Shown here: piece after piece, positions 1,343 through 64,000 of the stretch
How positions within the stretch are numbered: the stretch's first letter is position 1
Layout of the letters: the number at the start of each line of letters is the position of its first letter
Virus record (IMG/VR): IMGVR_UViG_3300045988_145635
Source of the DNA: a virus
Lineage: Duplodnaviria; Heunggongvirae; Uroviricota; Caudoviricetes
Strand: one strand, 5' to 3'
Length of the DNA: 64,000 nucleotides
Notes under the pieces: generated by a model
The model's database searches: none
The model's input: only the letters and a program-made list of their open reading frames with translations
Told to the model about the DNA's origin: nothing
Position numbers and translations under genes: made by a program

Positions 1343-1448
1343 TGTTTTGTATCAGAGACTCCAGACCTGAACATCACTACAGAATCCACTAGAACCCCTT
1401 CCCAGACGCTTTAAAATCGATTTTATGAACCACTTTAAGGAAACCAAC

Positions 1449-22626: not shown

Positions 22627-23114
22627 ATTCGCCTTTGTGTAGAAAAAAACATCGGGAAGCTGGTGGAATCCAACCAGCGGTTGTCGGACAGGTGAGCGGG
22701 GAAAATTATGATGACTTTCGTCGCCTGAGACATCCAGATTTCTTTCGTAGCATAATCACATACGTGATTAAGTGGTGTGATTATGTGAAAAATCACGCGC
22801 ACATAATACGCGAGCGGATACGGAACAAAACAAAATGCCGATCCGCGCCGACAAATAAACGCGGATCATAAAGCAAGACTAAAAGCCAATGATTAACCAT
22901 ACACCATAACGCAATATAACGCGTTTTAAGCGCGTTAATGCGCTAAGTAATGGGTATATACTGGTAAGGATATAAAAGCTCGTCTGTGGCGTTATTTTGG
23001 CGCTTATTTTTATGTTGTTGGAGTGAGTCAAAGACAATAAAAAAAGCGCCATCATTGGCGCGTTATGGTGGAAGTATTGGAAACGAAAAAAGCGCCCATA
23101 GTGGGCGCTCGATT

Positions 23115-23351
23115 TTATTTATGTAAACTGATTTCAAATCCCATTTCTACAAACGCTTTTAACATTAAAAATATATCAGCGTCATTCACGTCTGCTTTTT
23201 TTCGCTCCTGGTCGCTCAATAAGTCAATTTTGCGCGTCGTTTCATCTATAAGCTCGACTGCGCGCCCAGCGTAACCAGCGATCCCAGCGATGCGATTAAC
23301 ATAATATTCGTTATGGACGTTAACGCCAGCGATAAGAACAAACATGATCAA
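23115..23351 (-). CDS. Hypothetical small protein
   Basis: ORF bracketed by GCGCCCATAGTGGGCGC hairpins. Confidence 0.4.
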   Translation of the reverse strand: MIMFVLIAGVNVHNEYYVNRIAGIAGYAGRAVELIDETTRKIDLLSDQERKKADVNDADIFLMLKAFVEMGFEISLHK

Positions 23352-23569: not shown

Positions 23570-23616
23570 TTTAAAGCTCCTTTAAAGCGCCCATAGTGGG
23601 CGCTTGATTCCATTAA

Positions 23617-24267
23617 TTACGCTTTGAAAGCATCAGCTAGATAATTGTAGAAATCATTCTTGATAAAGCGATATTGCTGCGTACCAGCTTTCGCGCTCCC
23701 AGCTCCTTTGACTTTTTCAACAAGTCCAAGACGTTCGCAAAGATTGATCAACTGGTTGGCTTGAGTATAGCCAGCGTCCAATTTAATCTCGCACGCTTTT
23801 TTCGCTTCATTCATTAAATCGAAAACAGCGCCATTGGTGAACGTGTCGATCTCGTCGTTAATCATATCGATTAAAGCGAATACACGAGATCCTGACATAT
23901 CAGCGACGGAATAAACACATTTACCAGCTTTAATGGATTTAACCAGATAAACCAGTTTTTCCAGTGAATAACTATTAGTCATTGCATCACGGAAAAATAC
24001 TTCTGGCGCTTGTTTACTTGCTTTGATCGCATAGTAGAAAACAGAGCATAATTTTTCGTCTTCTACTGCGTTTACGACGTTGTTGATGAAGTAAGCAAGT
24101 TTAGTGGTAGCAGCTTGCATATTTGCTTTGTCTGCTTTGGTGTGCGTACCATTTTTATAATGTTCATTATATGTTTGAGTTGCCAGATCTGCTTTTTCGC
24201 GCAGCTCGTCGGATACAATGGATGCAGCTTCAATGATGGATTTTTTAGAAATGATAATGTTAGCCAT
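23617..24267 (-). CDS. Hypothetical protein
   Basis: 216-aa ORF with its own upstream AT-rich leader. Confidence 0.5.
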   Translation of the reverse strand: MANIIISKKSIIEAASIVSDELREKADLATQTYNEHYKNGTHTKADKANMQAATTKLAYFINNVVNAVEDEKLCSVFYYAIKASKQAPEVFFRDAMTNSYSLEKLVYLVKSIKAGKCVYSVADMSGSRVFALIDMINDEIDTFTNGAVFDLMNEAKKACEIKLDAGYTQANQLINLCERLGLVEKVKGAGSAKAGTQQYRFIKNDFYNYLADAFKA

Positions 24268-24848: not shown

Positions 24849-24864
24849 ATCAATATCCTAAAAC

Positions 24865-24916
24865 GGTAAAATTCGGTCAACCAAATCGAAGAAAACAAGA
24901 ATTTTTCTGCCGTCTT
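24865..24916 (-). repeat. Promoter/leader direct repeat, copy 1 (also carries a remnant 3' gene end)
   Basis: ~52 bp near-identical to 25231-25282. Confidence 0.6.
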
Positions 24917-24923
24917 CATACAT

Positions 24924-25220
24924 TTATCGGACTGACTCTACAGCCTTACGATTGGTGTCAAAAAGCGCATCAACGAACAGCAATGAAGAGTTGTTCAATT
25001 CACATGGTTCATAATTTTCCACCTGTTCACATAGTTGAGCGGTCTTACCTATGTTTATCCCTAGTTTTACTGCTGCTGAAAGTTGAAACATGCAAACTGG
25101 AATATTCTGAGACGTTGAGCATACGTCATGCATCAGCGACTTAATAATTGCAATATCATCCTTTGCATTGGCTGAAATTGAGTAAACTAAAAATAATGAT
25201 GTCAATAGTATCGATTTCAT
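24924..25220 (-). CDS. Small secreted Cys-containing protein (signal peptide), same architecture as 24549-24848
   Basis: MKSILLTSLFLVYSISANA signal-like N-terminus; 4-5 Cys. Confidence 0.5.
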   Translation of the reverse strand: MKSILLTSLFLVYSISANAKDDIAIIKSLMHDVCSTSQNIPVCMFQLSAAVKLGINIGKTAQLCEQVENYEPCELNNSSLLFVDALFDTNRKAVESVR

Positions 25221-25223
25221 AAC

Positions 25224-25748
25224 TCAAAAAGGTAAAATTCGTTCAACCCAATCGAAGAAAACAAGAATTTTTCTGCCGTCTTTCAACTTAAGTGTGACTA
25301 GGCAGGCATCAACGCCATCTGACGTTCCCTCAATTTCGCGGCCGTCTGCCATGTAGACCCTTATAGATTGGCCGTTTTGATAAGCCTTGCGACATATCTT
25401 AAAAAAATCACGACGTGATGGCTGGTTGTCTACATAGTCAGGGTGTATTGTTAGTCTCCCTTTGAAATCGTAATCAATGCCATCAATTACGCCTGATTCA
25501 ATTGTGCTAATGCGCTCAAGTGGGAGCCTTATACGATTTTCTTTGTCAAATGGAGTTGGACAAAGGTCAACTTTGTTACGAGATGACATGAGACCATAAA
25601 CGTACATGCAAAACACTTGGCCGTCTTCGAGAGTGACTCTTACAGGAAATTTAGCCCTCCGCCAGAAGAGCAAGGTGCGTTCAGCATGTTCGTAGTCTCG
25701 CGGCCATACTTCAGCCGGTATGCCGTAGGTGATATCTTTCGTCGTCAT
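25224..25748 (-). CDS. Hypothetical protein
   Basis: Start placed at the internal Met so the gene abuts the upstream lipoprotein gene. Confidence 0.5.
   Translation of the reverse strand: MTTKDITYGIPAEVWPRDYEHAERTLLFWRRAKFPVRVTLEDGQVFCMYVYGLMSSRNKVDLCPTPFDKENRIRLPLERISTIESGVIDGIDYDFKGRLTIHPDYVDNQPSRRDFFKICRKAYQNGQSIRVYMADGREIEGTSDGVDACLVTLKLKDGRKILVFFDWVERILPF
25231..25282 (-). repeat. Promoter/leader direct repeat, copy 2 (overlaps the 3' end of gene 25224-25748)
   Basis: ~52 bp near-identical to 24865-24916. Confidence 0.6.
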
Positions 25749-29361: not shown

Positions 29362-29443
29362 AAACCTCTTTCCTTAGTGCCTTTTGTATGTTATTTGGCT
29401 ATTATAATAAGTAAGTGATTACTTAGTGGATTGTAGCAATAAA

Positions 29444-30124
29444 ATGGATGTAAAAATCACGATTTTGCAGGTTGATGTTGCCAACCTTCGCCCGAATACC
29501 TGGAACACCAATTCGGTTGGTGCGCAGAATTTTGAAAAACTGAAAGGTTCTATCGAAAAATTGGGCTTTTTTAAGCCAATTTTGGCTCGTGAACTTGAAG
29601 ATGGATTTTTTGAAATCCTCGGCGGCGAACATCGCTGGCGTGCCGCTATTGAGCAAGGAATTTCAACGGTTCCAGTGCTTTCTGTGGGCAAAATTAGCGA
29701 TGTCGTAGCTAAACAGATGTCACTGGTGGACAACGAGCGATACGGTGAAGACGACCAAATCGCATTGCAACGCTTCATTGAAGAAATTCAGTCAGAACTT
29801 GACTATCAACTGTCTGAAATCGCCCCGTATGACGACGAAATCTCGATGGTTTTAGCAAAAGAGGCGGCAATCGACCTTGAAGCACTGGAGGCGTTGTCTC
29901 GTGGTAGTGATGGGCCTGTCGATACCGACAAACGAGAGAAAACCGAACGTGTGGGGGCGGAACATCAGACCATGCGCTTCAAAGTAACTTTCGATGCGTC
30001 AGATCGTGTTGCAGAAACCATAAAAAACATCATCAAAGAGCAGGCTATTAACACCGGTAATGAAATGGAGAACGCTGGTGAGGCTCTGGTGTGGCTGGTC
30101 GACTACTACAAGGAGCGTATGTAA
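29444..30124 (+). CDS. ParB/Srx-fold (ParB-like nuclease domain) protein 1
   Basis: LRPNTWN and ILGGEHRWRAAIEQG match ParB N-domain boxes; motif B site upstream. Confidence 0.6.
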   Translation: MDVKITILQVDVANLRPNTWNTNSVGAQNFEKLKGSIEKLGFFKPILARELEDGFFEILGGEHRWRAAIEQGISTVPVLSVGKISDVVAKQMSLVDNERYGEDDQIALQRFIEEIQSELDYQLSEIAPYDDEISMVLAKEAAIDLEALEALSRGSDGPVDTDKREKTERVGAEHQTMRFKVTFDASDRVAETIKNIIKEQAINTGNEMENAGEALVWLVDYYKERM

Positions 30125-30792
30125 TGACCAAAAAGTTTGAAATCGTATATCGCGACCCGGCAGATCTTATTCCCTATGAGATGAATGCCAAAAAGCATGA
30201 TGAACAGCAGATCCGAGATCTGGCCGCAGCCATTAAAAAGCGCGGATTTGACCAGCCAATTACGGTCGATAAGAACGACGTAATTATTACTGGCCACGGC
30301 CGCCGTGAGGCTGCAATTTTTGCTGGACTTGAGCGCGTGCCGGTTATTGTTCGCGATGATCTGAGTGATGACGAGGTACGTGCAAAGCGCCTTGAAGATA
30401 ACCGACTTGCCAGCATTGATTACGATGCAATTAAGCTACAGAAAGAGCTTGAGTCGCTTGTTCTGGACGATATCGAGGTTTTCGGCTTCGAAGAGCGTGA
30501 GTTGAATGTTCTCGTTGGCAGTATGACAGAAGAAATGGACACCGACTCGCTAGTTATCGATCTTGGCGAAGAAACTAAACGACAGAAGGATGAACACACC
30601 GAGATCAGTCGTGAAGTTGCAGCGGAAGAAGTACGTGTTGTCGACGTATTGGGCTTTAAAACGCTCCCTGCTGGCTCTGCCATTGTTGTTGGTGATTTGC
30701 TTGCCCATATGGAAGAAATGACGGGAGAAAGCGGGGTAGACGCATTTGTGGCATATGCGGAGAAGATCTCTTCCGGGGAGATGGCTGCATGA
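30124..30792 (+). CDS. ParB/Srx-fold protein 2
   Basis: IITGHGRREAAIFAGLERVPVIV; TAATG coupling to the upstream gene. Confidence 0.6.
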   Translation: MTKKFEIVYRDPADLIPYEMNAKKHDEQQIRDLAAAIKKRGFDQPITVDKNDVIITGHGRREAAIFAGLERVPVIVRDDLSDDEVRAKRLEDNRLASIDYDAIKLQKELESLVLDDIEVFGFEERELNVLVGSMTEEMDTDSLVIDLGEETKRQKDEHTEISREVAAEEVRVVDVLGFKTLPAGSAIVVGDLLAHMEEMTGESGVDAFVAYAEKISSGEMAA

Positions 30793-31454
30793 GCAAATAC
30801 ATCATCAACGTATCGTTTCAGACACGCGTAAATAAAACCACGCGCACGTTGGAAATCGCTGAGTCGTTCGGGCTTGGCCTGGACGAAAAAGAGTGGACGC
30901 TTTACGACAATCTGGAGCTGGAAGTGAAGCAGGGCGATGTGGTGTACATCACCGGCCAATCCGGTTCCGGCAAATCCGTTGTGCTGCGCGAGTTGCAACG
31001 ACAGATGAAGGATGAAGGGCTGTCTGTAGCCTCCATCGATGATTTTACCTTCGATAATGAGGTTAACGTCATCGATCAGTTGGGCAAAACGACCAGCGAT
31101 GCGCTTGGGTTGTTATCTATGGCTGGTCTGAACGATGCATATCTGTTTGTTCGCAAGCCTTCTGAAATGTCAGACGGCCAGAAATATCGTCTCAAGATTG
31201 CCAAACTGATTGAGTCAGGCGCTAAAGTGTGGGCTGCTGACGAGTTCGGCGCTGTTCTCGACCGTGTAACCGCTCAGGTTGTGGCGTCTAACCTCCAGCG
31301 TGCCGCTCGAAAGGTTGGTGCGACGGTAATGGTGGCGACGACTCACGAAGACCTGAAGAACGCGCTGCGCCCGGATATGCAGATCACCAAGCACTACAAA
31401 GAACGCGTGAAGGTGGAATATCACAATGGTAGTCATGATGAGGTTCATTTATGA
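30789..31454 (+). CDS. Minimal ABC-type ATPase
   Basis: Walker A GQSGSGKS, signature-like MSDGQKYRLKIAKL, Walker B VWAADEFGAVLD, H-loop-like ATTHE; ATGA coupling. Confidence 0.6.
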   Translation: MSKYIINVSFQTRVNKTTRTLEIAESFGLGLDEKEWTLYDNLELEVKQGDVVYITGQSGSGKSVVLRELQRQMKDEGLSVASIDDFTFDNEVNVIDQLGKTTSDALGLLSMAGLNDAYLFVRKPSEMSDGQKYRLKIAKLIESGAKVWAADEFGAVLDRVTAQVVASNLQRAARKVGATVMVATTHEDLKNALRPDMQITKHYKERVKVEYHNGSHDEVHL

Positions 31455-32341
31455 CGGACATCATCATTAAACGCTACCGCCCTGAAGAGTTTCCGCGTCA
31501 TCTGGATTTTCTGGAGCGAATGACTGTCACAAAGGGAACTGTAGAGGACTGGCACGCTCTTAAGTCGCTTCACTACAAAACAGACGGCAAACCTTTCGCG
31601 CCAACTTACTATCGCTGCGAACTTGATGACCGTCTGGTGGGCGTCGTGGTTATGGCTTACCCGAAACTACTGTTGGCACCTCGCCACCGCATGTTTCCTA
31701 AGTTGAAACCAACCACTAATACCACCGTGGCTAACCAGTACTGGGGTCGGTACGTGAATAACAACTTTGCGGTGATCAGTCGCTCAGTTGTGGATACTCA
31801 GTATCGTGGCGTAGGCGTCTCTTATCGAATGATTAACCTGGTTAGCAGGATGCATGACCGGCCAATCATTGAGATCCAGTCCTCGATGAGCAAATACAAT
31901 CCCTTCGCCATGAAAGCAGGGTTTAAGTTCATCCGCCCTGAGCGACCGAAGAGCTATGAAAGTGCACTGCGTGTATTCCAGCGCCATTTCCGTTCCGACC
32001 CGGGTGATAACGAGGCGATCGTCAAAGAGTTGTTCGCAATGAGCGAGTCTCGTCGTCGCCGTGCACTGCGTGATCTGGTGGCGGACTACCACAAGAACAG
32101 TTCCCTGGCAAAAGCTGGGCGGAATCGTGGCACGACGATTCAGGACATTGCCGACAGTCTGGTGGACGAGGCCAGCATTGTGAAGCTGCTCAAGGACATT
32201 CACAACCTGAGCTTTACGTCTCCGTTGTATGGTGTGTACCGAAACCCTGACTTTGGTCGTCGACTGCCTGACACGCTGCCACTGCTGGCATTCGACAAAC
32301 AACCTTTGGATAAACCGTTAGAAATTGCTTTACCGGCATAA
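31451..32341 (+). CDS. GNAT-fold acetyltransferase-like protein with C-terminal extension
   Basis: VGVVVMAYP ... TQYRGVGVS ... NPFAMKAGFK resembles the GNAT acetyl-CoA-binding core; ATGA coupling. Confidence 0.45.
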   Translation: MTDIIIKRYRPEEFPRHLDFLERMTVTKGTVEDWHALKSLHYKTDGKPFAPTYYRCELDDRLVGVVVMAYPKLLLAPRHRMFPKLKPTTNTTVANQYWGRYVNNNFAVISRSVVDTQYRGVGVSYRMINLVSRMHDRPIIEIQSSMSKYNPFAMKAGFKFIRPERPKSYESALRVFQRHFRSDPGDNEAIVKELFAMSESRRRRALRDLVADYHKNSSLAKAGRNRGTTIQDIADSLVDEASIVKLLKDIHNLSFTSPLYGVYRNPDFGRRLPDTLPLLAFDKQPLDKPLEIALPA

Positions 32342-32350
32342 GGATTTGCC

Positions 32351-32617
32351 ATGACGTTAACCGATAAACAAAAGGACATCATCAAAACGCTCAATCTCGG
32401 TTATGAGCGAGGTCATTTACTTGATCTGGACGAATTGCTTGAAGTTTTGCCGTACAAGACAACCAAGCAAAGTATCCAGTTCTCAATTCGCGCTCTGATA
32501 AAAAAGGGGCTGGTGGAGAAAGGGCATACGCGCCAACGCAGTGACAATCGCTATCACCGCCGGACTCTTGGGTTAACCACTTTAGGTCGAGCCAAAGCGA
32601 AGTTACTGGTGATGTAA
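32351..32617 (+). CDS. Small winged-helix-like DNA-binding protein
   Basis: 88 aa, basic C-terminus; last gene before the large palindrome. Confidence 0.4.
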   Translation: MTLTDKQKDIIKTLNLGYERGHLLDLDELLEVLPYKTTKQSIQFSIRALIKKGLVEKGHTRQRSDNRYHRRTLGLTTLGRAKAKLLVM

Positions 32618-32621
32618 TCGG

Positions 32622-32719
32622 TCTGGGAGCTTATTTAAAGACCTGCTTCTGTATATATAAATAATAAGTAACTTATTAAATATATACGGAAGCAGGCTTA
32701 GTAAGACATGCCCAGACCT
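32622..32719. repeat. Long palindrome, copy B (core 32642-32696) with outer inverted repeat GGTCTGGG / CCCAGACC
   Basis: cctgcttctgtatatataaataataagtaacttattaaatatatacggaagcagg; lies just upstream of the terminase genes. Confidence 0.65.
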
Positions 32720-32813
32720 AATTAAACACCCCAGAAAACAAGTTGGTTAGCATATGCAGTAAACAAGTTGTTTTAGAGCGCATGGACGCGCTCTGTGTGT
32801 TTTAGAGGGATCT

Positions 32814-33446
32814 ATGACGGTCGAAAAAGACGAGGTAAAAACTCGCCTGACACCAGCGGAGTGGGCCGAAGCTGAAGCCAAATGGACGTCAGGCGAATAT
32901 ACACTCTCAAAGCTGGAGGAAGAGTACGGCATTCGTCGTGAAACACTCTCCAGACATTTCAAAAAGCGAGGATTAGAGAAAGGCGCGGACTCTGTTGGGA
33001 AGATGGTTCGTGAGTCTCTTAAATCTGACGCAGAGCTTCGCGCTAAAGCCCGTGCGGAAAAGATAGAAGAACGTCGTACACGTTATGACGGCTGGGCGTA
33101 TGCGTTGGGGCAGATGGTGATGGTCGAAGTCACTACGGCCAAACGTGAGGGTAAGCCTTTAGGGGCGATTGAGGATTCTCTCAAGAGCTTACAGAGAGCC
33201 AGTAATACCCTTGCAAAATGCTTTGAAGTTTCGTCCAAAGCATTGGGCATGGATCATGCGGAAAATGACGAGGAAGAAATTCCGAACCTGGTATTTGGTG
33301 AGCTTACGCCTTCCCAGGTGGCGAAATTACGTCAGGAAGACGACGAGCCTGAAATCATCGATGACGAATTGCTTGAGACGTTGGAAGAAGAAGCTCTAAG
33401 CGAATTTGATGCGACAGATGATGGAAGTGAAGGGGAGGACGAATAA
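32814..33446 (+). CDS. Terminase small subunit (putative)
   Basis: HTH-like N-terminus (LSKLEEEYGIRRETLSRHFKKRG), acidic tail, directly upstream of and TAATG-coupled to the large subunit. Confidence 0.6.
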   Translation: MTVEKDEVKTRLTPAEWAEAEAKWTSGEYTLSKLEEEYGIRRETLSRHFKKRGLEKGADSVGKMVRESLKSDAELRAKARAEKIEERRTRYDGWAYALGQMVMVEVTTAKREGKPLGAIEDSLKSLQRASNTLAKCFEVSSKALGMDHAENDEEEIPNLVFGELTPSQVAKLRQEDDEPEIIDDELLETLEEEALSEFDATDDGSEGEDE

Positions 33447-34702
33447 TGGCAATCCCGTCCTCGCTCAGTCTTGTGCAACTGCATTCTGGACAGATGAAAG
33501 TCTTCCAGTCTCCGCATCGATTTAAAGTTGTTTGTGCTGGTCGACGCTGGGGAAAATCCCGGTTGTCGATCTCCACTATTATTCGTGCGGCGGCAAAGGA
33601 AAAAAAGCAAAGGGTCTGGTATGTCGCTCCTACTTACCAGATGGCTCGTCAGATTTTGTGGGACGATCTACAGGAAGTTCTGCCCCGTAAGTGGGTTAGG
33701 AAAAAGAACGACACCACGATGACAATCGTGTTGAAGAACGGTTCGGAGATCGCCCTCAAAGGTGCTGATAAACCTGACACTCTGCGCGGCGTAGCGTTGC
33801 ATTTTGTAGTGCTTGATGAATTTCAGGATATGAAGGCTGACACCTGGTACAAGGTGTTACGACCTACTCTTTCATCGACACGCGGCGGTGCACTGATCAT
33901 TGGTACGCCAAAAGGCTTCTCGGAATTTCACAAACTGTGGACTATAGGCCAGAACGTAGAGCTGCAAAGAAAGGGACAGTGGAAGAGCTGGCAGTTTGTA
34001 ACTGCTGATTCGCCGTTTGTGCCTACGGCGGAAATTGAAGCTGCTAAGAACGATATGGACCCTAAATCGTTCGCTCAGGAGTACCTGGCCAGCTTTGAAA
34101 ATATGTCCGGGCGCGTTTACTACCCGTTCGATCGAAACGTGCATGTTAAACCGCTTCAGTTCAACCCTCGGTTGCCTATATGGGTAGGACAGGACTTCAA
34201 CATTGACCCGATGTCTTCCGTAATTTTGCAACCTCAGCCAAATGGTGAGCTATGGGCAATTGATGAATTGGTGCTCTTTTCCTCTAACACGGCAGAGGTT
34301 TGTGATGAGCTTGAGAGACGCTTCTGGCGCTGGAAATCACAGATAACGGTATTTCCAGATCCGGCAGGTGCTTATCGCCAACATGCTCGCGGGGAGTCTG
34401 ACGTCGACATATTCAAAGAGAAGGGATTCTTACGTGTCGATTATTCGAAAAAGCACCCGCCAATTGCGGATCGTGTTAATGCTGTTAACCGAATGCTGAT
34501 GACCGCATCTGGAGATATCCGGCTGTATATCGATCCGAAGTGCAAGCATTTGATTGATTCATTGGAAAAAGTCATCTACAAGCCTGGAACACGAGATATG
34601 GATAAGACAGGTGGCATTGAGCATAGTGCAGACGCATTGGGCTATCCAGTACATCGTAGGTATCCAGTCAAAAACCGTGTTATTCTTGGTGGCTCTCGAT
34701 AG
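33446..34702 (+). CDS. Terminase large subunit
   Basis: Walker A VVCAGRRWGKS, Walker B HFVVLDEF, C-terminal nuclease-like region; position before the portal. Confidence 0.75.
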   Translation: MAIPSSLSLVQLHSGQMKVFQSPHRFKVVCAGRRWGKSRLSISTIIRAAAKEKKQRVWYVAPTYQMARQILWDDLQEVLPRKWVRKKNDTTMTIVLKNGSEIALKGADKPDTLRGVALHFVVLDEFQDMKADTWYKVLRPTLSSTRGGALIIGTPKGFSEFHKLWTIGQNVELQRKGQWKSWQFVTADSPFVPTAEIEAAKNDMDPKSFAQEYLASFENMSGRVYYPFDRNVHVKPLQFNPRLPIWVGQDFNIDPMSSVILQPQPNGELWAIDELVLFSSNTAEVCDELERRFWRWKSQITVFPDPAGAYRQHARGESDVDIFKEKGFLRVDYSKKHPPIADRVNAVNRMLMTASGDIRLYIDPKCKHLIDSLEKVIYKPGTRDMDKTGGIEHSADALGYPVHRRYPVKNRVILGGSR

Positions 34703-55190: not shown

Positions 55191-58100
55191 ATGTGGTACA
55201 GGGAAGGTACTATCACATTTACACAGGGTAGCAATACTCTGGTTGGGGCAGGGACAGCCTGGAACGTAACAGCTAATGGTGTGTTGCCGGGGATGATCGT
55301 CATTGGCCCCGACAATAAGCTGTATGAGATCAAGCGCGTAATAAGCGATACGAATATTGTTCTCTCAGAACCTTATACCGGCGAAACTCAGTCTGAGGTT
55401 CCGTGCCGAATCATTACGACCTATGAAGGCGACTTAACACAGTTTAGCGCGCGCTTTACAGCACTAATGTCGCGTATGTCGGCTGATTCCAAGTCTATGC
55501 GCAGTTGGTTGACTGCTCTGGATGAGGTGACAATCGAGCGTGAAGACGGTACAGAAGTAACCGTTAAGCCGCTAATGCAGATCGTCAACGAGCACAACGA
55601 AAACGTTGAGTGGTATAAAAATAACACTGACGCGATTGATGCTGCTGGCGACAAAGCTCGTGAGGCAGCGGCCAGTGCTGCCGCAGCAGCAGAAAGCGCC
55701 AATACCGCTGGAGAAAAAGCCTCTCAAGCGTCTCAAAGTGCATCCGCTGCGGCATCCTCACAAAGTGCCGCAAGTGCGAGTGCAACTGCTGCGAAAAAAT
55801 CTGAAACGAATGCCGCAGCGTCACAACAATCAGCAGCCACTTCTGCATCCACCGCGACCACGAAAGCGTCAGAAGCTGCCACCTCAGCCCGGGATGCGGC
55901 GGCCTCAAAAGAGGCAGCGAAATCATCAGAAACGAGCGCAGCCTCGAGCGCCAGTAATGCCGCTTCCTCGGCAACGGCGGCAGGAAATTCCGCGAAGGCG
56001 GCAAAAACGTCCGAGACGAACGCCAGGTCTTCTGAAACGGCAGCGGGACAGAGCGCCTCGGCTGCGGCAGGCTCAAAAACAGCGGCTGCGTCGTCTGCCA
56101 GTGCCGCGTCAACAAGTGCCGGGCAGGCCTCAGCCAGTGCCACCGCCGCCGGAAAATCGGCAGAAAGTGCCGCATCGTCTGCTTCAACAGCCACAACGAA
56201 GGCTGGCGAAGCCACTGAACAGGCCAGCGCAGCAGCGAGGTCTGCTTCCGCAGCGAAGACATCCGAAACGAACGCGAAAGCGTCGGAAACCCGTGCAGAA
56301 TCCTCAAAAACGGCAGCCGCATCGTCCGCCAGTTCGGCAGCGTCATCGGCATCATCTGCGTCTGCTTCAAAAGATGAGGCGACCAGACAGGCGTCAGCAG
56401 CGAAGGGCAGCGCCACGACGGCATACACGAAAGCAACAGAGGCGGCAGGCAGTGCGACGGCAGCATCTCAGAGCAAAACTGCTGCTGAATCCGCTGCGAC
56501 CCGTGCGGAAGCTGCTGCTGATCGTGCTGAAGAGATTGCCGGTGCAGTTGCGATGGAAGACGCAAGCCTTACAACTAAAGGTGTTGTGAAACTTAGCAGT
56601 GCTGTCGACAGCACCAGTGAATCGCTGGCCGCAACGCCAAAAGCAGTTAAAGTAGTCAATGACAATGCGAACAGCAGGGTGCCATCTAACCGAAAAATTA
56701 ACGGGAAAGCACTGACTGCGGATATCACATTAACGCCGAAAGATATTGGTACTTTAAATTCAATAACGATGTCTTTCTCTGGCGGGGCCGGGTGGTTCAA
56801 ACTGGCTACTGTTACAATGCCACAAGCGAGTTCCATCGTTTACATCGCATTGATTGGTGGCGCTGGTTACAACGTCGGCTCCCCACATCAGGCAGGCATT
56901 TCAGAACTGGTTCTACGAGCAGGCAATGGAAACCCCAAAGGGATTACAGGTGCTTTGTGGAAGCGTACAGCTGTCGGATTAACGAATTTCGCCTGGATCA
57001 ACACATCCGGCGATACATATGATATTTACGTTGAGATTGGCAATTATGCGACTCGTGTAAATATCCATTGGGATTGTACTGCAAATGCGACAGTTTCTAT
57101 TTATACATCGCCAACATATTCAGCTAGTAAGCCTTCCAGCGTTACCGATGGTGTTGTTTATACGATGTATAGCACACATCAGAAACCGACGCCGTTAGAT
57201 ATTGGAGCACTGCCAACAACCGGAGGAACAGTTTCAGGTCCGTTGTCTGTTACTGGTGGGATCACCGGAACATTAAATGGTAATGCAAGTACAGCAACGA
57301 AATTGCAGACGGCAAGATCTATCGGTGGAGTTGGTTTCGACGGTTCTGCAAATATCAACCTTCCAGGTGTAAATACTACGGGTAATCAGAACACCACTGG
57401 TAATGCTGCAACTGCTACAAAACTTCAGACGGCAAGAACTATCGGCGGCGTGAGCTTTGATGGTACTGCGAATATTAATTTGCCAGGTGTTAATACGACT
57501 GGTAATCAGAATACAACGGGCAACGCGGCTACTGCTACGAAGTTGCAGACTGCGCGTACTATCAATGGGGTGTCGTTTGACGGCTCGGCAAATATTTCCT
57601 TGTCGCCAACAAATATAGGTTGCCCGGCATCTCCTACTGGTTGGTTAACTACAGGAAGTAATGGCGGAGCAATAACAACAGCACAGTTAGTGACGTTATT
57701 GCAAAATAATGGTGCTTTTAATGCAAAGGCATGGATAGCGCGTTGTGCTTGGGCGTATGCAAATAGTGCATCCATACCAGACAGCGAAACAGGATGCGGC
57801 ATTATTCCACTGGCTGGCGCAGTTATTGAGGTATTTAATAACGGTAGTAGCTCAAACAATTATACGATCCGCATAACAACGGCCACAACGACAAGTGTTT
57901 CCGGTGCTCTCACTAATGCGGAGTTTATCTATGTATTTAACGGGACGAGCTATTCACCAGGATGGCGCAGAGCGTATAACACTAAAAACAAGCCTACTGC
58001 GGCTGATGTCGGAGCTTTACCACTATCTGGAGGAGCGTTAACTGGCGGATTAACGTCTTCTGGTGAGATCGTTTCAAAATATGCAAATGGTTTCCGCATT

Positions 58101-59216
58101 GCTTACGGTAGCTTTGGGTTCTTTATCCGTAATGATGGATCGAACACATATTTCATGCTAACAGCATCAGGAAACACATTAGGTTCATGGAACGGTTTGC
58201 GACCTATTACAATTAATAATACCAGCGGTGCTGTGTCCATTGGTAATGGACTAAATGTTACTGGTGGCGTAAATGGTAGTTTGAACGGTAATGCTTCAAC
58301 AGCTACGAAGTTGCAAACTGCTAGAAAAATAAGCGGCGTGTCTTTTGATGGTTCTGCTGATATAACACTAACAGCTGCAAATGTATCTGCTTTTGCTCGA
58401 CGCGCTACTGGAACTTATGCCGATACTAGTGGTGCGGTCCCGTGGAATGCCGAATCAGGTGCGTATAATGTTACACGCTCCAGGGATTCTTATATCGTTG
58501 CAAATTTTTATATAGGCGTAGGTAGTTGTCGGACTCTCCAAATCCGAGCGCATTATAAAAATGGTGGATTGTATTACCGTTCATCACGTGATGGCTATGG
58601 GTTCGAAGAGGACTGGACTCAGATATATACTAAAAAAGACAGCATCCCAGGTGTGAATGCAGATGGGAACCAGAACACTACTGGTAATGCTGCCACCGCC
58701 ACAAAATTGCAGACAGCAAGGAAAATTGCTGGTGTGGCGTTTGATGGCTCTGCCGATATTACTTTGACTGCGGCTAACCTTAATGCTTATACGAAAACAG
58801 AGGTAACGAATCTTCTAAGTTCCTATGTGAAGAGCAGTGCTCTTCCAAGCATGACTGTGCGAACTTCCTCTATTTCAGGTGGGGATATGGGCATGAGTTT
58901 GTCCACATTCATTAGCCACCTTAAATCAAATGGGGCGTTTAGCAAAAGATATTGGATTGGCTTTGGCGATGCTATGGGATTCAATGCTGGCAGTATCAAC
59001 AATATAACGGGATTTGGTGCTGTAGAATTAGCAGAATCTATAATCGAAGTTTTTAATCTACCTAACGGTGATTATACAATTCGTTTAACAACGTCACATA
59101 AAGCTGATTACGGTGGAGTGACAAACGCAATCCTCGTTTATCACTACCGCAGTAATAGAAGTCCGTCAGGTCAATGGCTGAAATTTGCCGGTACTGTTGG
59201 GGCAACAAGTAACTGA
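55191..59216 (+). CDS. Side tail fibre protein
   Basis: Ala/Ser-rich low-complexity region followed by repeated GNASTATKLQTAR.IGGV.FDGSANI phage-fibre repeats. Confidence 0.75.
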   Translation: MWYREGTITFTQGSNTLVGAGTAWNVTANGVLPGMIVIGPDNKLYEIKRVISDTNIVLSEPYTGETQSEVPCRIITTYEGDLTQFSARFTALMSRMSADSKSMRSWLTALDEVTIEREDGTEVTVKPLMQIVNEHNENVEWYKNNTDAIDAAGDKAREAAASAAAAAESANTAGEKASQASQSASAAASSQSAASASATAAKKSETNAAASQQSAATSASTATTKASEAATSARDAAASKEAAKSSETSAASSASNAASSATAAGNSAKAAKTSETNARSSETAAGQSASAAAGSKTAAASSASAASTSAGQASASATAAGKSAESAASSASTATTKAGEATEQASAAARSASAAKTSETNAKASETRAESSKTAAASSASSAASSASSASASKDEATRQASAAKGSATTAYTKATEAAGSATAASQSKTAAESAATRAEAAADRAEEIAGAVAMEDASLTTKGVVKLSSAVDSTSESLAATPKAVKVVNDNANSRVPSNRKINGKALTADITLTPKDIGTLNSITMSFSGGAGWFKLATVTMPQASSIVYIALIGGAGYNVGSPHQAGISELVLRAGNGNPKGITGALWKRTAVGLTNFAWINTSGDTYDIYVEIGNYATRVNIHWDCTANATVSIYTSPTYSASKPSSVTDGVVYTMYSTHQKPTPLDIGALPTTGGTVSGPLSVTGGITGTLNGNASTATKLQTARSIGGVGFDGSANINLPGVNTTGNQNTTGNAATATKLQTARTIGGVSFDGTANINLPGVNTTGNQNTTGNAATATKLQTARTINGVSFDGSANISLSPTNIGCPASPTGWLTTGSNGGAITTAQLVTLLQNNGAFNAKAWIARCAWAYANSASIPDSETGCGIIPLAGAVIEVFNNGSSSNNYTIRITTATTTSVSGALTNAEFIYVFNGTSYSPGWRRAYNTKNKPTAADVGALPLSGGALTGGLTSSGEIVSKYANGFRIAYGSFGFFIRNDGSNTYFMLTASGNTLGSWNGLRPITINNTSGAVSIGNGLNVTGGVNGSLNGNASTATKLQTARKISGVSFDGSADITLTAANVSAFARRATGTYADTSGAVPWNAESGAYNVTRSRDSYIVANFYIGVGSCRTLQIRAHYKNGGLYYRSSRDGYGFEEDWTQIYTKKDSIPGVNADGNQNTTGNAATATKLQTARKIAGVAFDGSADITLTAANLNAYTKTEVTNLLSSYVKSSALPSMTVRTSSISGGDMGMSLSTFISHLKSNGAFSKRYWIGFGDAMGFNAGSINNITGFGAVELAESIIEVFNLPNGDYTIRLTTSHKADYGGVTNAILVYHYRSNRSPSGQWLKFAGTVGATSN

Positions 59217-63014: not shown

Positions 63015-63018
63015 AAAT

Positions 63019-63051
63019 CATGCATTGGCGCGTACATTGCGCCAATGCATG
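63019..63051. terminator. Bidirectional hairpin terminator between convergent genes
   Basis: 13-bp perfect stem CATGCATTGGCGC / GCGCCAATGCATG. Confidence 0.55.
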
Positions 63052-63066
63052 AGTACAATGTCAGTT

Positions 63067-63834
63067 TTATGCCGCGCTAACACTATGTTCAGTCCTAACC
63101 ACCCCAACCTTCACAAAAGGGCTACCGTAGCTTGGTGGCTTCTTGATTAATTTGCCTACATACAGTTTTCTAATATGCTCATCGGCTATTCTGCCAACAA
63201 ATTCATAACGTTTTGTGTCGGGGCCAAGAGCTATATCCCTTGTAAAGTACTGCTGAGAACCGGCTTTGACCCAGCATTCAATCTGATAAACTTCCATTAT
63301 CAGCCCACCATATGTAGCGTAGGCATATTTGAGATTCTCGTCTCTTGGAACCTTTGCCCATACGCCACGCGTAGCTTCATATAATGCCAGAGCGGACATT
63401 CCTGACTTGTAGGTGCTGTTTAGCAGGAAGGCAAGACCGGCGTGCTCAGGAGCAATTTCAGTTTCCTCTTGCAGCACTAAGTGATGGTAGGCGTCCAGTG
63501 ATATTCTGCCCATCATGGAACCACTTCCTCGTACCTTATTCGTAAGCTCTCCGACCCCCATAAGGTCGATGCATGTCGCCTCAACAAGTTTGGCTGTGGT
63601 TTCATCCATACCATGACGAAGTATATCTATGCCTAATTTTTTATTAGCCAAAAGTTCTTTGATCCGCATGGATTTGGGAGAGTCATCGGGATACTTGATG
63701 TGATCGAGACAACGAGTCGATTTGCCTTTTCCTATGTAAAACGGTCTTTTCATCTTGTCTTCTGTATCATAGAGACAGTAAACATAGTATTTAGCCTTAT
63801 CCAATGATCTCGCGTATACCGATAAATCGTCCAT
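63067..63834 (-). CDS. GIY-YIG nuclease-domain protein with uncharacterised C-terminal domain
   Basis: N-terminal YYVYCLYD ... PFYIGKGKSTRCLDH fits the GIY / YIG / R / H pattern. Confidence 0.55.
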   Translation of the reverse strand: MDDLSVYARSLDKAKYYVYCLYDTEDKMKRPFYIGKGKSTRCLDHIKYPDDSPKSMRIKELLANKKLGIDILRHGMDETTAKLVEATCIDLMGVGELTNKVRGSGSMMGRISLDAYHHLVLQEETEIAPEHAGLAFLLNSTYKSGMSALALYEATRGVWAKVPRDENLKYAYATYGGLIMEVYQIECWVKAGSQQYFTRDIALGPDTKRYEFVGRIADEHIRKLYVGKLIKKPPSYGSPFVKVGVVRTEHSVSAA

Positions 63835-63944
63835 TATTGCATCTCTTTGCTACTGACTAATGCGTTCTATTTTACACATAAGTTTTTAATCAATTTAACA
63901 GGCTCAAAGTGTAGAGCTTCTGGGCGTCTAAGACGACAAGTTAT

Positions 63945-64000
63945 GCCTGCTTCTGTATATATAAATAATAAGTAACTTATTAAATATATACGGAAGCAGG
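63945..64000. repeat. Long palindrome, copy C (truncated by window end)
   Basis: Identical to copy B over the visible length; left flank TTCTGGGCGTCT resembles copy A flank TTCTGGCGTCT. Confidence 0.6.

Follow-up and report, generated by a model that had tools for sequence, protein, structure and literature searches.

The window analysed here, a stretch of viral DNA of 64,000 nucleotides, contains three copies of an AT-cored palindrome that is a conserved boundary feature of the SSU5/pHCM2 phage-plasmid family, standing in front of the replication and packaging operons. The window is, judging by its sequence, an SSU5/pHCM2-type phage-plasmid; it displays 99% identity to the Escherichia phages CMS-2020a and Cyrano (pLF82) and about 80% to Salmonella phage SSU5 and Klebsiella relatives, and represents 64 kb out of a circle of ~108 kb. 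Phage-plasmids of the SSU5/pHCM2/pMT1 type are common in clinical Enterobacterales, with resistance genes aboard; PLSDB contains roughly 450 relatives.

Anatomy and genomic setting of the palindromes

The inner palindromes are located on the + strand at 1287-1341 (copy A), 32642-32696 (copy B) and 63946-64000 (copy C, cut by the end of the window). Copy C does not differ from copy B at any of the 55 nt, and copy A, which has the same arms and a different centre, is 82% identical to copy B. The arms of copy A, CCTGCTTCTGTATATAT and ATATACGGAAGCAGG, enclose an AT-rich core, and this copy corresponds to positions 78084-78138 of Cyrano and to 78304 of SSU5. In copy B the 17-bp arms, which include one G·T pair, are followed by a 2 × 2 A/A internal loop and an 8-bp inner stem. 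Common to all copies are two inverted half-units of 15-17 bp (CCTGCTTCYGTATAT) round an AT or (TA)n core, set inside a weaker outer inverted repeat; the length of (TA)n differs between close relatives, so that the element spans 51-57 bp. The outer repeat consists of the flanks that the preliminary description had singled out. Its left part was found at copy A (TTCTGGCGTCTG, 1268-1279, type A alignment) and copy C (TTCTGGGCGTCT, 63918-63929), with a related sequence, GGTCTGGGAG (32620-32629), at copy B that begins 2 nt past the stop codon of an 88-aa ORF. The right-hand CCAGACC occurs at 1361-1367 and 32712-32718, within CAGAGACTCCAGACC (1353-1367) and CCCAGACC (32711-32718), respectively, the latter displaying compensatory changes with 32620-32629. 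Together with the flanks each element forms an imperfect dyad of ~100 bp.

The palindromes are real and non-random, and lie at module boundaries as first proposed. A 24-nt arm probe with up to 3 mismatches found matches at these three sites only in the 64-kb window, while 0 of 100 dinucleotide-preserving shuffles gave any match to the probe. Both strands are predicted to fold far more stably than shuffled sequences, as RNA (-31.8 kcal/mol, z = -5.8 for copy A; -38.8 kcal/mol, z = -8.7 for copy B) and as DNA (z = -5.2 and -8.1, respectively). When the window was scanned with Rfam 15 there was no match at gathering score, the only matches being chance-level ones to long-hairpin miRNA models at copy B.

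All three copies occupy intergenic gaps that separate co-directional transcription units. The left arm of copy A is 23 nt past the stop codon of an adenine-methylase ORF (670-1263), consistent with the initial placement of this copy after a Dam-like gene, and is followed by a small ORF and an RNase H block. Copy B lies between the 88-aa ORF (32351-32617), which ends a ParB-like/ATPase block, and terS/terL (32814-34702) with the late operon, 118 nt upstream of terS. Copy C separates the ParA (par)/cargo region from an operon, just beyond the window end, that encodes a 246-aa ORF, a DnaB-like helicase and a primase. The initial placement of copy C after a GIY-YIG gene did not hold, as the ORF in question (63067-63834) is on the minus strand and copy C is therefore 5' of it. 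Nor was there support for the palindrome as a target of the GIY-YIG protein, the gene being variable cargo that is absent from Cyrano and SSU5, both of which retain copy C.

The regions next to copies B and C have features of their own. The block directly upstream of terS (29426-32617) is conserved in every lineage examined and encodes two ParB_N-domain proteins, an ABC-type ATPase, an ATPase-acetyltransferase fusion and the 88-aa ORF, which weakly resembles winged-helix proteins; the block may serve in DNA modification or as an accessory to packaging. Between the ParA operon and copy C (63015-63945) the cargo varies among close relatives, with other ORFs in Cyrano and SSU5. Here it comprises the minus-strand GIY-YIG ORF, which is LEM-3-like, and homology is regained precisely at the left palindrome arm, whereas the flanks of copies A and B are conserved on both sides. 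The ORF that follows copy C past the window end (Cyrano OV696614, 31328-32068) is conserved upstream of the helicase gene; its 246-aa product had no match in Pfam or NCBIfam, and its AlphaFold2 model is all-alpha (pLDDT 78) with weak fold matches that include the T4 gp59 helicase loader and DnaD/DnaB primosome domains.

The window also has other repeats. The 1341-aa tail-fibre ORF (55191-59216) contains, at 57236-58799, repeats with a 120-nt period that are 62-71% identical, three in tandem at 120-nt spacing and the rest dispersed. Two direct-repeat pairs occur in the minus-strand gene region (23089-23122 with 23584-23617, and 24853-24916 with 25219-25282), one an ordinary terminator hairpin (AAAGCGCCCATAGTGGGCGCT followed by T-rich sequence) and the other a 64-nt repeat of 91% identity.

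Conservation of copy number, position and pairing

Three copies, no more and no fewer, are present in each of the whole genomes of CMS-2020a, Cyrano and SSU5. They occupy the same gaps throughout, one behind the adenine methylase gene, one ahead of terS and one ahead of the helicase-primase operon. There is no fourth copy in the remainder of the CMS-2020a genome. A pattern scan of IMG/VR yielded 118 matches, all of them in gap A, B or C with consistent flanks, and none with flanks from two different copies or in opposite orientations; the invariance of arm positions among these 118 is partly imposed by the search pattern. All nine matches from a looser scan of species-representative genomes (GTDB, one per species), which came from Kluyvera, Buttiauxella, Yersinia pestis and one probably mis-binned MAG, were in the same three gaps. 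No copy outside SSU5-like elements was seen among the 118 IMG/VR and 9 GTDB matches. As every match lies in one of three syntenic gaps, a mobile palindromic repeat (REP/BIME, MITE), for which many copies at non-syntenic sites would be expected, is not supported. The palindromes do resemble REP/BIME in being lineage-specific units in transcribed intergenic DNA that occur singly or in head-to-head or tail-to-tail pairs, but differ in their fixed syntenic positions, their low number (3-6 copies), their restriction to SSU5-like elements and a half-unit that by itself forms no hairpin. Site-specific recombination or inversion sites are likewise not supported, as the 118 sites include no recombinant products between copies.

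Within the gaps of Cyrano and SSU5, 23-28 nt separate the upstream stop codon from the left arm, and 109-118 nt the end of the right arm from the next ATG. By contrast, the intervals between copies follow no rule. The near-equal spacing of ~31.3 kb, which the preliminary description had itself suspected to be coincidental, is indeed a coincidence: the two intervals here are 31,355 and 31,304 bp, and the third, in circular CMS-2020a, is about 45 kb. Those of SSU5 are 33.5, 44.8 and 25.0 kb, and those of the K. oxytoca and Moellerella elements differ as well. Equal spacing was therefore dropped as a feature; the distances reflect synteny.

Base pairing within the element was assessed in B gaps gathered through synteny with TerS, which are free of selection for arm sequence and comprise 18 distinct sequences. 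In this set 96.7% of cells are paired, compared with 19-50% when the partners are slid. Changes on both sides occur at four pairs, two of them in the outer helix, and the covariation score is greater than that of all 500 shuffles, although relatedness inflates the measure. Twelve of the 18 inner pairs never vary, while the flanking intergenic DNA cannot be aligned between genera; the terminal CCTGC/GCAGG, which forms the CCUGC/GCAGG base of the RNA stem, is invariant in this set. On the + strand there are G·U intermediates in 21 cells at 6 pairs as against C·A in 4 cells at 3 pairs, a mild hint of constraint at the RNA level. Arm positions 6, 8 and 9 have changed without compensation, and the results include C·A and G·A mismatches at site A of Salmonella and site B of K. 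pneumoniae. Site A of Salmonella displays C·A and U·C mismatches; at site B of K. pneumoniae the GC portion of the stem contains two mismatches together with a wobble. The alignment thus points to pairing that is maintained, loosely.

Putative transcription signals and lineage-specific arms

The sequences that follow the palindromes differ between the copies. Directly after its right arm copy A has a T-rich tract (CTGTTTTG, 1342-1349) that is terminator-like on the + strand, and in CMS-2020a copy C continues into a T-tract, TCTTTTAAAAGAC. In nearly all variants of copies A and C, 5-6 of the 8 nt that follow the right arm are T (29 of 31 distinct flanks for copy A), compared with 2-4 at copy B. 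None of the copies is preceded by an A-tract. With T-tracts only on the 3' side, copies A and C resemble one-directional intrinsic terminators of the + strand, and copy B does not. The earlier suggestion of strong bidirectional terminators is thus plausible as to a terminator role at A and C on the + strand, but not as to bidirectionality, nor for copy B. A scan for a simple terminator consensus called none of the three copies because their loop exceeds the limit of the scan. In the window, where copy C is located behind a minus-strand ORF, a terminator would end antisense or read-through RNA only. Two genes just upstream of copy C in Cyrano, CYRAN_29 and CYRAN_30, are expressed in LF82 lysogens (PMC9928086), and a stop signal at this place makes sense in that light.

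Two types of promoter-like sequence lie downstream of the palindromes. After copy A a block at 1385-1417 (+ strand), TCCACT-N21-TAAAAT containing CCAGACGCT, ends 32 nt before the probable ATG (1449) of the small ORF (1425-1676). After copy C, in CMS-2020a, the T-tract is followed by a TCCACT...CCAGTCGCTATCAT block and then by the ORF that precedes the helicase and primase genes. The combination TCCACT-N21/22-TA..AT with CCAG(A/T)CGCT occurs at only two intergenic + strand sites of the Cyrano genome, after A and after C. Copy B is followed instead by a probable terS promoter and leader (32719-32773, + strand) that consists of a -10-like hexamer, TAATTA (32719-32724), and two AAACAAGTTG(G/T)TT boxes (32736-32748 and 32761-32773). 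Placed by this hexamer, the right arm of copy B would probably lie at about -38 to -55 of the terS promoter. The same promoter type, a -10-like hexamer with a AAGAAAACAAnTTGTTT box, is common in the genome, with at least 12 other gene starts. Scans for sigma-54 and sigma-70 promoters gave no convincing match within the palindromes.

Further dispersed signals were recorded. The dyad box AAGAAAACAAnTTGTTT is found 17-78 bp before many start codons and ~8 nt after a -10-like hexamer, including at terS and parA (3762, 4491, 9032, 17144, 17195, 19830, 20315, 21219, 21982, 32736, 32761 and 61939 in the window), and has the look of an operator or leader box belonging to the principal type of promoter in the element. 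A second dyad, TAGGTAAGTAnTTACCTA, is exclusively intergenic, 18-69 bp before ATGs, also inside the late operon (640, 2856, 7835, 29408, 34700, 38123, 55129 and 59338 in the window, and again just before the ORF after copy C); related forms exist in Moellerella. Between the promoter boxes and the ribosome-binding site of terS a GC-rich hairpin with a T-tract (32774-32795), conserved across lineages, may be an attenuator of the late operon.

In more distant relatives the arms take other sequences. The elements of K. oxytoca and Moellerella were read whole, and those of Xenorhabdus, Pectobacterium and others at site B only. The arm is CCTGCTTCCGTATAT in E. coli and Salmonella, CCTAGCTCCCATAGTAT in Moellerella, CCTTGCTCTGGTAG and CCTGGCTCCAGATAG in K. 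oxytoca, CCTTGCTCCCATAATAT in Xenorhabdus (site B) and CCGTGCTCCCATAGTAT in Pectobacterium (site B). In Moellerella and K. oxytoca all three sites within one genome use the arm of that lineage, which indicates that the sites evolve in concert. The AT-rich spacer reaches 95-125 bp in some lineages, the distance between arms ranging overall from 21 to about 125 bp. Copy B of K. oxytoca has T8 after the palindrome, and at copy C of both K. oxytoca and Moellerella the arms enclose an ordinary terminator, the K. oxytoca half-units at this site facing outward. The T8 and the enclosed terminators suggest that termination is needed at the boundaries in every lineage examined. Moellerella pNX2019-MW3 contains three additional single half-units (GCCTAGCTCCCATAGTAT, then AT-rich DNA), all on the + strand (L142:11082, L142:45952 and L143:42708). 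Each is preceded by an ordinary terminator and followed by a gene that has sequences resembling promoters or operators; one lies midway through the tail gene cluster. Lineage-specific arms are thus kept in 3-6 copies even where separate terminators are present, and the half-unit persists where a terminating hairpin is impossible, which argues that its sequence is read by something.

Candidate functions of the palindromes

The reading that we tentatively favour, at slightly less than even confidence, is that of a composite boundary element, a terminator or insulator hairpin whose arms double as recognition half-sites for a putative factor. The anatomy, the copy number, the synteny, the asymmetry of the T-tracts and the concerted change of the arms are observed; from them we infer that transcription terminates, where the promoters lie and that a binding factor exists. 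The + strand transcript of the element would fold into a hairpin of at least 25 bp. At A and C the U-tract after the hairpin would stop upstream read-through ahead of the replication operons, some of the genes upstream of these boundaries being expressed in the plasmid state. At B the hairpin, directly upstream of the terS promoter, would terminate inefficiently without a U-tract, and the missing tract in this lineage is a point against the proposal. The half-unit sequence would also be read by a putative trans-acting factor encoded by the element, and such reading would keep the copies within one genome alike. Against a reading factor, the arm spacing (21 to ~125 bp) is too variable for a rigid dimer, and gene conversion alone could also explain the concerted arms with no binding factor involved.

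A parallel in form to such half-units is provided by the C1 operators of P1, which in the P1 annotation are monovalent sites and bivalent inverted pairs dispersed over the phage-plasmid. They share with the palindromes an asymmetric AT-rich half-unit of ~17 bp, single or in inverted pairs, before lytic operons; like the P1 operator ATTGCTCTAATAAATTT, the half-units carry a (T)TGCT(C/T) core followed by AT-rich DNA. In contrast to the P1 operators, the arms do not overlap the likely -10 hexamers but stand 35-100 bp upstream, and the AT-rich spacer is long. Searches with tblastn detected no homologue of P1 C1, Coi or Lpa in the window, Cyrano, SSU5 or the K. oxytoca and Moellerella elements, and a P1-type C1 operator network, which requires a repressor of the C1 family, was therefore rejected. 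Three other candidate motifs were also set aside: a LexA box (the arm sequence CTGTATAT resembles half an SOS box, but its CTG is CCG in Salmonella and the half-sites are ~40 bp apart); a T4 late-promoter box, TATAAATA, with a MotA box, TGCTT, in the arm (neither how they are oriented nor whether they occur at all agrees between lineages, and they were taken as chance occurrences in AT-rich DNA); and EcoP1I (AGACC) and BspMI (ACCTGC) sites, which are not conserved between copies.

An explanation confined to RNA, which we consider unlikely, treats the palindromes as intrinsic terminators, stabilisers of mRNA 3' ends or RNase III sites, with no sequence-specific factor at work; gene conversion and the slow pace at which stems evolve would alone keep the copies alike. 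This accounts for the T-tracts and for the covariation with its excess of G·U intermediates, and the location right behind stop codons fits as well. RNase III prefers long double-stranded stems, and the AU-rich stems of at least 25 bp would suit this enzyme. Gene conversion could be driven by the RecA/UvsX-like recombinase, UvsY and UvsW of the element. As in intrinsic terminators, there is a hairpin with a GC-containing base just after a stop codon and, at A and C, a T-tract on the transcribed strand only; the 55-nt hairpin with its AU-rich upper stem is, however, far longer than usual, three loci share one stem sequence that is conserved across genera, no U-tract is present at copy B, and in other lineages half-units occur singly or round a separate ordinary terminator. 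Hairpins confined to RNA do not explain the single half-units of Moellerella, which are unable to form them, nor the enclosed terminators, where the right arm would rarely be co-transcribed with the left, nor the concerted, lineage-specific arms that accompany separate terminators in 3-6 copies. The absence of recombinant flank combinations among the 118 sites is also at variance with this explanation.

It is somewhat less likely again that the palindromes are DNA sites from which the lytic programme starts, either as three dyad origins or as cruciforms cut by RuvC- or SbcCD-like nucleases, copy B perhaps also giving the end at which packaging starts. In the first form, which taken alone seems to us improbable, inverted initiator-binding half-units would flank an AT-rich unwinding region, and the three would serve a T4-like replisome after induction. 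The element is annotated with the genes of such a machinery (DnaB-like helicase, primase, Pol III alpha, gp32-like protein, UvsW and UvsY), copy C is directly upstream of the helicase-primase operon, and in every lineage a GC-containing box stands beside AT/(TA)n DNA, with AT spacers of up to about 125 bp. No iterons occur within or close to the ORF that precedes the helicase gene. Dyad origins with an AT-rich centre include HSV oriS/oriL and SPP1 oriL/oriR, in which inverted boxes similarly flank AT-rich DNA in several copies per genome. No initiator was identified, the fold match of the ORF after copy C being marginal, and origins leave unexplained two features that point to transcription, the confinement of T-tracts to the 3' side and the constant spacing from stop codons. 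Cumulative GC skew rises monotonically round Cyrano and SSU5 and is uninformative.

In the second form, which we judge very unlikely, the (TA)n core would extrude as a cruciform under supercoiling, and RuvC-like and SbcCD-like nucleases or general recombination would act on it, priming recombination-dependent replication or shuffling neighbouring modules as proposed for the T4 PeSL cassettes. The recombination genes annotated in the element (RecA/UvsX-like recombinase, UvsY mediator, UvsW helicase, SbcC, SbcD, RuvC-like) include such nucleases, and the DNA hairpin energy far beyond shuffles, the variable (TA)n length and the break in homology exactly at the left arm of copy C fit cruciforms; single half-units could be scars of earlier exchanges. 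Deletion or inversion products between copies are nevertheless missing, as 0 of the 118 sites have flanks from two sites, the flanks of A and B are conserved on both sides, and the arm sequence is conserved past the needs of pairing. The PeSL (promoter-early stem-loop) cassettes of T4-type phages, which Arbiol et al. reportedly described in 2010, are said to be repeated conserved stem-loops with a promoter at module boundaries. The palindromes are comparable in their stem-loop and promoter-like block at module boundaries, in the T4-like recombination genes and in the variable cargo beside copy C. They are unlike PeSL in having only three copies at fixed syntenic places, two different promoter types downstream and, among the 118 sites, no sign of mediating exchange.

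The preliminary description had pointed to copy B as a cos or pac site because of its place upstream of terS. That copy B is a packaging site recognised by the terminase, with A and C as related uncut sites, is highly improbable, since there are three copies at fixed places per genome instead of one. Its position 118 nt upstream of terS speaks for this reading, but the near-identity of the copies (B = C here), their evolution in concert and the fact that only B adjoins terS all tell against it, as do the full-length IMG/VR contigs and PhiR41_1, which are permuted relative to copy B, and a T4-like TerL of the Terminase_6 type, closest to that of P74-26, with no cos signature. The records of SSU5 (JQ965645) and Cyrano (OV696614) both begin inside copy B, at the equivalent of 32679-32680 in the window. 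The SSU5 start, 8-10 nt to the right of the dyad centre and odd for an arbitrary one, is the sole hint of packaging; it could reflect either a genuine terminus or a palindrome-induced break in the assembly. The Cyrano start was copied from SSU5 by re-orientation of the plasmid, with the ends not determined (PMC9928086), and was rejected as cos evidence. A hairpin telomere resolution site comparable with telRL of N15, a linear plasmid prophage with a single such site and a protelomerase, differs from the three sites per genome found here in related records that are circular.

Dispersed centromeres bound by the ParB_N proteins or the ParA partner of the element, for which N15 with its four scattered sop sites and RK2 with its KorB sites are precedents, are scarcely credible: the sites are dispersed and palindromic, with two ParB_N proteins 2-3 kb upstream of B and the ParA operon ~1 kb upstream of C, but the arms do not form a contiguous palindrome of 14-16 bp, their spacing ranges over 21-125 bp, the ParB_N proteins score far below partition-family cut-offs and the 3'-only T-tracts are unexplained.

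Our search of the literature, which was of partial coverage, found no earlier description of palindromes in SSU5-like elements and no printed arm sequence. The parts of the proposed boundary element (hairpins resembling terminators, dispersed repeats resembling operators, and cassettes of promoter and stem-loop) are of known kinds; their combination and the strict conservation at three sites across the family appear to be undescribed. In practical terms the palindrome anchors three backbone junctions and can serve as a marker for the alignment or typing of SSU5-like elements, and its repetition probably accounts for contig breaks and for the unusual point at which the SSU5 reference record begins. 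Should the sites prove to be origins or cleavage sites they would be of high interest; either role would take the plasmid, once induced, from theta replication driven by RepA to a T4-like mode that depends on origins or on recombination. A family-wide, three-copy element in front of the replication and packaging operons provides a handle, open to mutation, on how SSU5/pHCM2/pMT1-type elements silence their lytic operons in the plasmid state and switch to lytic replication and packaging, and a bait for the putative binding factor.
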